Positions 27,801 to 30,800 are shown, counted from the first letter of the stretch. The stretch: DNA of 64,000 bases from Candidatus Spongiisociaceae bacterium (GCA_965219685.1 CBDCOH010000002.1:2656001-2720000); one strand, 5' to 3'. The notes: a model not told the origin generated them from the sequence alone. Numbers and translations are program-made.

Positions 27801-30800
27801 CTAGTTCAGCAACTCGGCGGGATCGGGAGAGTCCGGAATGAACCCGTAGTCCCCGTCACCATCACCGTCGCCCTCCCCATCACCGCCGGCACCGGGCATT
27901 TCCAGCGAGGCGAGCCAGTCGGCCCCGAGATTGGTCGGGAGCATGCTGGCCTCGGGCAGATGGGGCTCGATCGCCTGGTAGCGCGCGGCCCCCGTACCGG
28001 CCGGGATCAGCTTCCCGATGATCACGTTCTCCTTCAGGCCCCGGAGGTAATCGGACCGGCCGTTGATGGCCGCCTCGGTCAGCACTCTGGTGGTCTCCTG
28101 GAAGGAGGCAGCCGACAGCCACGAATCGGTGGCGAGGGAGGCCTTGGTGATGCCCATCAGCTCGCGGCGCCCCTCTGCCGGTCGTTTCCCCTCGGCCACC
28201 AACGTGCGGTTGACGTCGCGGAACTCGCCGTAGTCCACGAGTTGTTGGGGTAGGAACTCGGAGTCGTACGCGCTGGTCACCCGTACCTTGCGCAACATCT
28301 GGCGAACTATCAGCTCTATGTGCTTGTCGTGGATGTCCACTCCCTGCGAACGGTACACCTCCTGCACCTGCTCCACCAGGTAGCGCTGGCAGGCCTTGAC
28401 ACCCTTGATCTCGCAGACCTCCTTGGGATCGAGGGGTCCTTCGGTCAGCGGGTCGCCGGCCGTTATCTCCTGCCCGTTGCGGACTCTGAGCCGTGCCCGG
28501 CGGGACACCTCGTAGGTCGACTCGCCCTCGGACGACTCGACAACGATCCGCCTTCCCGTGTCCCCGCTCTCCTCGAGCCGGATCCGGCCACTCACCTGTG
28601 ACAGCACCGCCTTACCCTTGGGGGCGCGGGCCTCGAAGAGTTCGACCACCCGGGGAAGCCCGTGGGTGATGTCCTGGCCTGCCACGCCGCCGGTGTGGAA
28701 GGTGCGCATGGTCAGCTGCGTTCCGGGCTCACCGATGGACTGGGCGGCCATGATGCCGACTGCCTCGCCCGGCTCCACCATCCTCCCGGTGGCCATGCTG
28801 AGGCCGTAGGAAGCCCTGCTTATCCCGTGACGGATCTCGTCGGTGAGGGGCGAGCGAACCTTGATCCTGGCCACTTCGGAGGCAGCCTCGAGCGCCACCA
28901 TCCCATGGCGGTCGATCACTTCCCCGGCGACCAGCTCGCGTCCGTCCTCGGTAACCAGCGGCTGACCGTTGACGGTTACATCGTCCACGAGCACCCTACC
29001 GAACACCCGGTTGCGCAAGGTACGGATCGTGCTGCCGTCATCCTCGCGTAGCGGTATCTCGATTCCCCGGTCCTCGGAGTCCTCGTCGTGGACGATGATC
29101 TCCTGGGCAACGTCCACCAACCGGCGGGTCAGGTAACCGGAGTCGGCAGTCCGCAGCGCCGTATCCGCCAAGCCCTTGCGGGCCCCGTGGGTCGAGATGA
29201 AGTACTCGAGAACGGAGAGGCCCTCCCTGAAGTTGGACGTGATCGGGCGGGGGATGATGTCTCCCTTGGGATTGGCGACCAGACCGCGCATGCCGGCGAT
29301 CTGGCGCACCTGCATCATGTTCCCCCTGGCGCCGGACGTCACCATCATGTCGATGGGGTTGAACAGCCCGCTCGACAGGGATTTCCGCATCGATTTGGTC
29401 ACCTTCTCCGTGGCTTCCGTCCAGATCTCGATGAGTTCCTGGCTGCGTTCGAGATCGGTGATGATCCCCCTCTGGTACTGCGTGTCGACCTTGTCGGCCT
29501 GCCTCTGGAAACTGTTGATGATCGTCCGTTTGTCCGAAGGGGTAAGCACATCGCTCAACCCGATGGTCAGGCCGGCCCTGGTCGAGTACTCGAACCCCAG
29601 TTCCTTGATACCGTCGAGGGTGCGCTGCACCACGTTCTTGTTGTAGCGTTCGATGATCTCGCGGATGAGATCCCTAACGTCGCTCTTGAGCACGCGGGCG
29701 TCCAGTACCGGGAAGTCGGGGGGCAGGACGCTGTTGAGCAACGTCCGTCCCAGGGTGGTCTCCACCAGTTCGTCACCTCTCACCGACTCCGCGGTGATGA
29801 GGTGCGGGATGAACGCCTTGAGCTCAGCATGTACCTCGGGATCACCGGCGATCTCGCCCAGACGGAGCCTGATGGGCGCGTGGAGATCGAGTTCGCCCAG
29901 GTCGTAGGCCATGATCGCCTCATCCAGATCGGCGAACCACCTACCGGCGCCCTTGGCATCGGGCACCTTCTCCGACAGGTAGTAGATGCCGATGACCATG
30001 TCCTGGGAAGGCGTCACGATGGGGCGCCCGCTGGCCGGCGAGAGCACGTTGTTGGTGGAGAGCATCAGCACCCGAGCCTCTGCCTGGGCTTCCGCCGAAA
30101 GGGGCAGGTGGACCGCCATCTGATCCCCGTCGAAGTCGGCGTTGAACGCCTCACACACCAACGGGTGTATCTGGATGGCCTTGCCTTCCACCAGGATCGG
30201 CTCGAAGGCCTGAATACCGAGCCGGTGGAGGGTGGGCGCGCGGTTGAGCAGCACCGGATGCTCCTGGATGACCTCCTTCAGCACGTCCCACACCTGCGGT
30301 CGCTGGCGCTCGACCATGCGCTTGGCGGACTTGATGTTCTGGGCCAGATCCCGATCGACGAGCCGCTTCATCACGAAAGGCTTGAACAGTTCCAGCGCCA
30401 TCACCTTCGGCAGGCCGCACTGGTGAAGGCGGAGCTGGGGACCGACGACGATGACCGAACGGCCCGAGTAGTCGACCCGCTTGCCGAGCAGGTTCTGGCG
30501 GAAGCGGCCCTGCTTGCCCTTGAGCATGTCCGACAGGGACTTCAGGGGACGGTTGCCCTGACCGGTCACCGCCTTGCCCCGGCGTCCGTTGTCGAACAGG
30601 GCGTCGACCGCCTCCTGAAGCATACGCTTCTCGTTGTTGACGATGATCTCCGGAGCGTTGAGGTCCAAGAGCCGCTTCAGGCGGTTGTTGCGGTTGATCA
30701 CCCGCCGGTACAGGTCATTGAGGTCCGATGTGGCGAAGCGGCCCCCGTCCAGCTGCACCATGGGCCGCAGGTCCGGAGGAATCACCGGTACGGCCTCGAC

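Follow-up and report, generated by a model that had tools for sequence, protein, structure and literature searches.

Apparent repeated loss of the second zinc site of the RNA polymerase beta-prime subunit in Acidimicrobiia

The second zinc site (ZnII) of the bacterial RNA polymerase beta-prime subunit (RpoC) is treated as a fixed structural feature of the enzyme, and its four cysteines (Cys4; C814, C888, C895 and C898 in Escherichia coli) tie the segment after the bridge helix to the CxxC knuckle that precedes the trigger loop. Markov et al. reportedly found in 1999 that the E. coli site is needed for folding and assembly of beta-prime. In a review (PMC12632275), RpoC is counted among the cell's main zinc-dependent proteins, with Zn(II) described as firmly bound by four cysteines, and is said to end up in inclusion bodies in Cupriavidus with impaired zinc import. 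Zinc-free paralogues of ribosomal proteins, under the concept of zinc-binding (C+) and zinc-free (C-) forms, are well described (PMC11672702, section 4.2.1), and RpoC goes unmentioned in the first 300,000 characters of that article. No paper on natural loss of ZnII was found in full-text searches, whose coverage leaves out most subscription journals, so that an earlier mention, for example in a large polymerase survey, is possible. The present work concerns a 64,000-nucleotide stretch of DNA (the window) from Candidatus Spongiisociaceae bacterium (GCA_965219685.1, CBDCOH010000002.1:2656001-2720000), whose rpoC gene encodes a beta-prime subunit in which all four ZnII cysteines are replaced.

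Translation of the gene and a BLASTP comparison with the RpoC of E. coli K-12 (NC_000913.3 locus; 50% identity over 184 aa, E 8e-51), from which the ligand pairing was taken, place serine, aspartate, serine and serine opposite the four cysteines of the E. coli site (Table 1). The same alignment contains a one-residue gap after the first of these serines, in a segment that reads DC[EG]TDRG in Cys4 relatives, and P988 occupies the position of E. coli V885. A sequence-only reading of the window had already described RpoC as lacking all four ZnII cysteines, now S, D, S and S, within 28800-29090, and had called the N-terminal zinc ribbon (ZnI) and the catalytic NADFDGD motif intact; both statements are borne out, and all four replaced codons fall inside that interval. 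Nine cysteines remain in the protein, at residues 81, 83, 96, 99, 237, 465, 553, 1133 and 1141. No cysteine or conserved histidine stands at the four ZnII positions, and the alignment with relatives shows no alternative ligands; H996 varies between histidine, tyrosine and phenylalanine, and the acidic residues around site 1 also occur in Cys4 relatives (EEDCETD). For this single-copy, intact gene, the sequence gives good support to the proposal that a natural RNA polymerase lacks the ZnII Cys4 site.

The window's protein shows the full-length similarity, NADFDGD motif, ZnI ribbon, position after rpoB and single copy that mark RpoC, and lacks only ZnII, a feature that is widely conserved in RpoC and not decisive for membership. 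Its frame is open across 1336 aa, and a single rpoC match was obtained in its own genome (4.42 Mb, 2 contigs). Among solved structures the best matches are beta-prime chains from Streptomyces and Mycobacterium (E=0, with 1644.6 bits for Streptomyces 7vpd_D over query residues 27-1322), and an identical protein, P0003, has precomputed assignments to the five usual Rpb1-type Pfam domains (PF04997, PF00623, PF04983, PF05000 and PF04998). As annotated, the protein starts at the first GTG of its reading frame; alignments with solved homologues begin only at residue 25-27, so that translation may in fact start at M27 (about 31733), which would lower the numbering by 26.

Table 1. Features of the window discussed in the text, with positions counted from its first nucleotide
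Feature	Position	Strand	Remarks
rpoC, RNA polymerase beta-prime	27801..31811	minus	1336 aa from first GTG; PDB beta-prime matches at E=0; five Pfam domains; single copy
N-terminal zinc ribbon (ZnI), C81, C83, C96, C99	31515..31571	minus	intact
Catalytic NADFDGD, aa 557-563	30123..30143	minus	intact
First half of former ZnII (12 residues), aa 905-916	29064..29099	minus	S912 for E. coli C814; one residue after S912 deleted
Codon of S912	29076..29078		E. coli C814
Second half of former ZnII (19 residues), aa 985-1003	28803..28859	minus	D991, S998, S1001 for E. coli C888, C895, C898
Codon of D991	28839..28841		E. coli C888
Codon of S998	28818..28820		E. coli C895
Codon of S1001	28809..28811		E. 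coli C898
rpoB, beta subunit	31816..35184	minus	immediately upstream of rpoC, same operon
MaoC-type dehydratase (two-hotdog) and ECF sigma factor	40217..41670	minus	between rpmG and nusG
rpmG, ribosomal protein L33	41681..41863	minus	C- form; 1 Cys, no CxxC pairs; only L33 found in genome
recR	24810..25403	plus	Cys4 zinc finger intact (CSRC...CSIC); zinc fingers not purged genome-wide

Families are labelled f1, f2 and so on and genomes G000 and so on, f1 being the family and G000 the genome of the window. An rpoC match was obtained in 39 of the 41 genomes of the window's family and order; G012 (72% complete) gave none, nor did G033 (98% complete) with two queries. All 24 matching genomes of f1 carry serine or threonine followed by aspartate, serine and serine, together with the same one-residue deletion, and f2 shows the same replacement and deletion (2/2 genomes, later 15 of 16 by pattern, plus G201 by sequence), which puts the loss in every one of the 26 readable genomes of the two families. 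Family f10 is mixed, with the S-D-S-S form in four of nine sampled genomes, and among nine other families of the order, each of the 13 genomes with a match keeps all four cysteines. These 13 include G031, whose gene on contig C10 is interrupted by frame changes and by two TGA codons and still carries the Cys pattern, and the Cys4 state of f5 is read from two unpublished genomes (G028 and G039). The best 120 protein clusters for residues 890-1040 in a 5.8-billion-protein collection, with source names that point to Acidimicrobiia, contain no cysteine at the site. Site 1 is serine in 97, threonine in 13 and alanine in 10, site 2 is aspartate in all 120, site 3 is serine in 118 and alanine in two, and site 4 is serine in all 120; proline stands three residues ahead of site 2 in every cluster. 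Because these residues hold so constant across clusters that are 55-100% identical, they look to be under purifying selection. ZnII loss is, by this distribution, inherited in the window's lineage, and the S-D-S-S state would go back to an ancestor common to f1, f2 and part of f10, as one component of an overall explanation, set out below, that is considered probable.

Some members of the lineage show further changes. Within f1, genus g3 has an insert of about 45 aa inside the former zinc domain, with 170 instead of 125 aa between the SGYLTRRL and SIGEPGTQ anchors, and genus g4 has one of about 21-28 aa near aa 1044 (L117 = G014, L118 = G009, and G010 and G018); neither is long enough to be an intein. 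A second rpoC in G026 (L121; Cys4, 55% identical) sits on a 5-kb contig (C163) of a metagenome-assembled genome (MAG) with 3% contamination and is probably a contaminant.

In a wide sample drawn from Actinomycetota, Bacillota, Chloroflexota and Patescibacteria, the four cysteines are kept at 79 of 80 loci, the sole exception being an Acidimicrobiaceae MAG. Set beside the 120 clusters above, this shows that the replacement is no chance event. DNA patterns were then applied to one sample of 301 genomes of the class Acidimicrobiia, where the S-D-S-S knuckle pattern occurs in 23 (21 real by sequence and two, G050 and G317, chance matches), the Cys knuckle pattern in 161 and neither in 119. Strict patterns were dropped as the sole classifier, since the Cys4 pattern missed true Cys4 genes with variant neighbours or inserts (ordinary Cys4 genes of f15, f21, f26, f28, f30 and f49 and of G068). 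The site was also read by sequence in 23 of 30 genomes picked from the set with neither pattern, the other seven giving no match with the query. A second Cys-less form is present in f13, f31, f42, f47, f51 and genus g112 of f41, with proline at site 1 (from a reading of L124 against the equally long L154 string), aspartate at site 2, serine at site 3 and serine, cysteine, alanine or glycine at site 4, and with leucine in place of the arginine of VRS; the partial state of proline, aspartate, serine and cysteine occurs in f13 and f31. In f16, whose genomes are about 1 Mb, only the last cysteine is kept in both genomes examined (L127 = G263, L128 = G044), and the Cys4 pattern matches none of 65 sampled genomes of this family, which may represent a third, separate loss; its site is highly divergent (SPFNS...MDPxCYG). 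A different elaboration is seen in f28 (L142 = G183, L143 = G132), where all four cysteines are present and an acidic insert of 15-30 aa between the C888 equivalent and the CxxC knuckle bridges the zinc site with a long loop.

A broader pattern, P-[L/F]-T-D...G-x-S...Y-G, matched 39 of the 301 class genomes, 21 with the window's form and 18 with the second, and the reversed control matched none. Applied to a 401-genome sample of the phylum, it gave eight matches, all inside the class, and none in the 370 genomes from other classes. The Cys-less state accordingly extends to at least 39 of the 301 class genomes by pattern, and would reach about a third if the 65 sampled f16 genomes resemble the two examined. 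When the 150 best of 1.84 billion library representatives were classed at the site, eight were clearly Cys-less (three of the first form and five of the second), 120 had all four cysteines readable, nine showed cysteines only in part, and 13 were truncated or frame-broken, two of these with Cys-less fragments. The suggestion that the loss is a clade marker therefore stands in a narrower form: S-D-S-S with the deletion marks f1, f2 and four of nine sampled f10 genomes, whereas a closely similar loss came about independently in other families of Acidimicrobiia.

Aligning RpoC and mapping the loss on trees, a check proposed with the sequence-only reading, separated the two forms. Trees were built with the whole zinc region masked, and in a FastTree of 84 rows and 785 columns, with E. 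coli as the outgroup and without 14 near-duplicate f1 rows and two unpublished rows, starred branches separate the window's order, with f16, from the clade of the second form. The approximately unbiased (AU) test rejected a common origin of all Cys-less forms: a tree constrained to unite both groups loses 581 log-likelihood units (p-AU 3e-60). With groups defined by trait and after the first tree had been seen, which weakens these tests, a single origin was not rejected for f1, f2 and the part of f10 (p-AU 0.124) or for the second form (p-AU 0.297), and one clade for the window's group and f16 was borderline (p-AU 0.0465). Lateral transfer of the zinc-less segment between the Cys-less groups was ruled out by the 68 columns between the motifs, in which identity to the window is 39% for Cys4 members of its own order, 31% for the second form and 30% for other Cys4 sequences. 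This stretch evidently follows the backbone tree, convergence being confined to the ligand positions, and by these trees ZnII loss arose at least twice in Acidimicrobiia.

Two residues deserve attention in this respect. Aspartate is two nucleotide steps from cysteine, which makes the repeated change of the C888 equivalent to aspartate notable. All 43 Cys-less rows have proline at the V885 position, as do seven of 57 Cys4 rows (f4, f27, f41 and f50), and because some of these Cys4 relatives (f4, f41 and f50) lie near the two Cys-less groups, the proline may precede the loss, which fits a permissive change ahead of the disappearance of the cysteines.

Structure prediction, which had also been proposed as a check, was carried out as an AlphaFold2 fragment model of aa 840-1110 from a 90-row alignment. 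Over fragment residues 71-150 the predicted local distance difference test score (pLDDT) lies at 88-96; the two blocks holding D991, S998 and S1001 score 84 and 80, and the isolated bridge helix and trigger loop fall below 50. The trimmed model core superposes on zinc-bearing beta-prime chains, with Z 14.5 and a root-mean-square deviation (rmsd) of 3.2 A over 119 residues for 6bzo_D of M. tuberculosis, and Z 14.4 and 4.4 A over 126 residues for 2a6h_D. When the whole model is compared with Foldseek, poor prediction of these two isolated elements drives the rmsd up to about 17 A, and only the trimmed alignment is informative. The replacement, which arose at least twice, suggests that the enzyme can fold without the ZnII zinc, and the region would be metal-free but folded; the model itself leaves zinc out, leans on homologues and can neither show nor exclude a metal.

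It is probable, on the evidence as a whole, that the ZnII Cys4 site was replaced by a metal-free polar cluster that is inherited in f1, f2 and part of f10, that a second clade acquired independently in near-identical form, and that arose in the window's lineage perhaps against a background of zinc economy. The cluster would consist of Ser912, Asp991, Ser998 and Ser1001, accompanied by the one-residue deletion and the proline at the V885 position, and the enzyme should then carry one structural zinc (ZnI) instead of two while the local fold is kept. The carboxylate of the aspartate and the hydroxyls of the serines would most likely form hydrogen bonds that take over the tying role of zinc, with the proline presumably stiffening the loop. 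The second Acidimicrobiia clade would have reached a near-identical solution on its own (proline, aspartate, serine, then serine, cysteine, alanine or glycine). As for the selective background in the window's lineage, zinc economy in RNA polymerase and the ribosome, the zinc-binding machines of greatest abundance, is the most likely candidate, although this part of the explanation is weakly supported.

Other structural zinc sites were compared in ten related, non-independent genomes, in each of which every gene was found once. L31, L33, S14 and L28 each occur in the window's genome as a single, Cys-free copy (those other than L33 at G000:C2 loci L193, L199 and L244, with S14 in its long form), S18 is half degraded, with one CxxC and a degraded CxxY, and L32 and L36 are of the zinc type. 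Among the other ZnII-less genomes, L31, L33 and S14 are Cys-free in G013 and G008 (f1), S14 in G025 (f2), L31 in G092 (f10), and L31 and S14 in G044 (f16), which keeps only the last ZnII cysteine. In the Cys4 genomes of the order, all seven ribosomal proteins are zinc-type (C+) in G038 (f4), as are L31, L33 and S14 in G088 (f10). At least one Cys-free sole copy among L31, L33 and S14 is thus found in 6/6 ZnII-less genomes of the window's clade versus 0/2 Cys4 genomes of the same order. ZnII loss and zinc-free ribosomal proteins are correlated in the window's clade, above all in f1. The correlation lends partial support to the idea, raised by the sequence-only reading, of a zinc-sparing adaptation: the Cys-free L31, L33, S14 and L28 sole copies set against the all-C+ Cys4 sister speak for it, and the second clade shows no such link.

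Several observations weigh against the explanation as a whole. In the second clade, G143 (f13, second form, ZnII lost) and G269 (f41, Cys4) share identical ribosomal profiles. The window's genome keeps zinc-type L32 and L36, two DnaJ, RecR and ZnI, and the case for zinc economy is a correlation over ten non-independent genomes. The RpoC trees resolve the families of the order poorly, f10 is mixed, and a single S-D-S-S origin is only not rejected, by tests whose groups were chosen after the fact; the fold model, for its part, is silent on metal. Beside these points, it may be noted that L33 of f41 and f13 (L196 = G269, L197 = G143) has three cysteines and an aspartate as the fourth ligand position (CxxC...CxxD), a partly altered zinc ribbon. 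Of the candidate causes in the window's lineage, zinc economy has the most support, and its main rival is neutral decay after a permissive proline.

In that rival account, a permissive change (the proline at the V885 position and a shorter loop) made zinc redundant, the cysteines decayed without benefit, and aspartate and serine were fixed as keepers of the knuckle. It is possible, if on the unlikely side. The proline occurs in Cys4 relatives near both Cys-less groups and could predate the loss, the partial states in f13, f31 and f16 look like stepwise decay, and no ribosomal C- forms accompany the loss in the second clade. On the other hand, the same aspartate and the same two serines arose independently and are invariant or nearly so, and in the window's clade the loss accompanies Cys-free L31, L33, S14 and L28; neither point is decisive.

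Protection against thiol oxidation, which the sequence-only reading had raised as an oxidation-resistant adaptation, fares considerably worse. Zinc-thiolate sites are known redox switches, and a Cys4-zinc site would be a target of oxidants and electrophiles whose removal, here of all four cysteines, could harden RNA polymerase. Cysteines of RpoC outside the site are nevertheless not depleted, with a mean of 8.7 (6-11) in 30 Cys-less rows versus 7.5 (6-11) in 44 Cys4 rows, and f1 RpoC has more of them than its Cys4 order-mates. The equally exposed ZnI ribbon reads CCCC in 30 of 30 ZnII-less and 45 of 45 Cys4 full-length rows, and in the window's genome DnaJ keeps eight cysteines and RecR four. 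Neither general cysteine avoidance nor oxidation resistance is supported, and protection from oxidation is improbable as the cause.

Still less probable is a metal swap, in which Asp991 with neighbouring carboxylates and hydroxyls would bind a hard cation (Mg, Ca or Mn), or zinc through oxygen and nitrogen ligands. The aspartate is invariant and acidic residues flank both motifs (DEDSED and TDE), but the acidic flank is shared with Cys4 relatives, His996 is not conserved, and the second clade, with proline at site 1 and in places alanine or glycine at site 4, has too few ligands left. An artefact, be it a pseudogene, a contaminant or an assembly error, can be practically dismissed despite an estimated genome contamination of 5.93%, as the open frame lies beside rpoB in a normal operon on a 4.39-Mb contig, is single-copy, and shares its state with 120/120 nearest clusters and dozens of genomes.

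The surroundings of the gene follow the order usual for actinobacteria, namely tuf, rpmG, MaoC-type dehydratase, ECF sigma factor, nusG, rplK, rplA, rplJ, rplL, rpoB and rpoC. An open reading frame (ORF) for secE was not found in the Pfam scan of the submitted window ORFs.

The polar cluster matters beyond this lineage as a natural and repeated experiment, in which the site is removed with the same replacement residues on each occasion, and for which Cys4 sister lineages offer a comparison. This makes an old question testable, namely whether zinc is needed only as a folding aid and what can replace it. A more ambitious formulation, offered tentatively as somewhat less than an even prospect, is that two, possibly three, Acidimicrobiia lineages converged on aspartate and two serines, with the proline, to yield single-zinc polymerases, within a constitutive zinc economy in f1 that includes L31, L33, S14 and L28. 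If true, the convergent residues would amount to nature's own recipe for a beta-prime that needs no zinc here, and they would show that a site held to be essential for assembly of the E. coli enzyme can be dispensed with, given the right second-shell changes.

Compared with canonical ZnII, in E. coli as well as in the Thermus and Mycobacterium equivalents, the window's site lies in the same protein at the same position, with the same predicted local fold and conserved flanking motifs, and differs in the replacement of the four cysteine ligands and the deletion of one residue. With the C- ribosomal proteins (L31, L33, L36, S14, S18, L28 and L32), it shares the loss of zinc-binding cysteines in a very abundant protein, which in the ribosomal cases is still functional after losing its CxxC ligands, and so carries the notion of zinc-free variants beyond small ribosomal proteins and into the transcription machinery. 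A C+ rpoC paralogue was not found in the window's own genome. Whereas the classical C+/C- system is a paralogue pair switched by Zur, this genome has one rpoC and one copy of each ribosomal gene, and its zinc-free state would therefore be constitutive.

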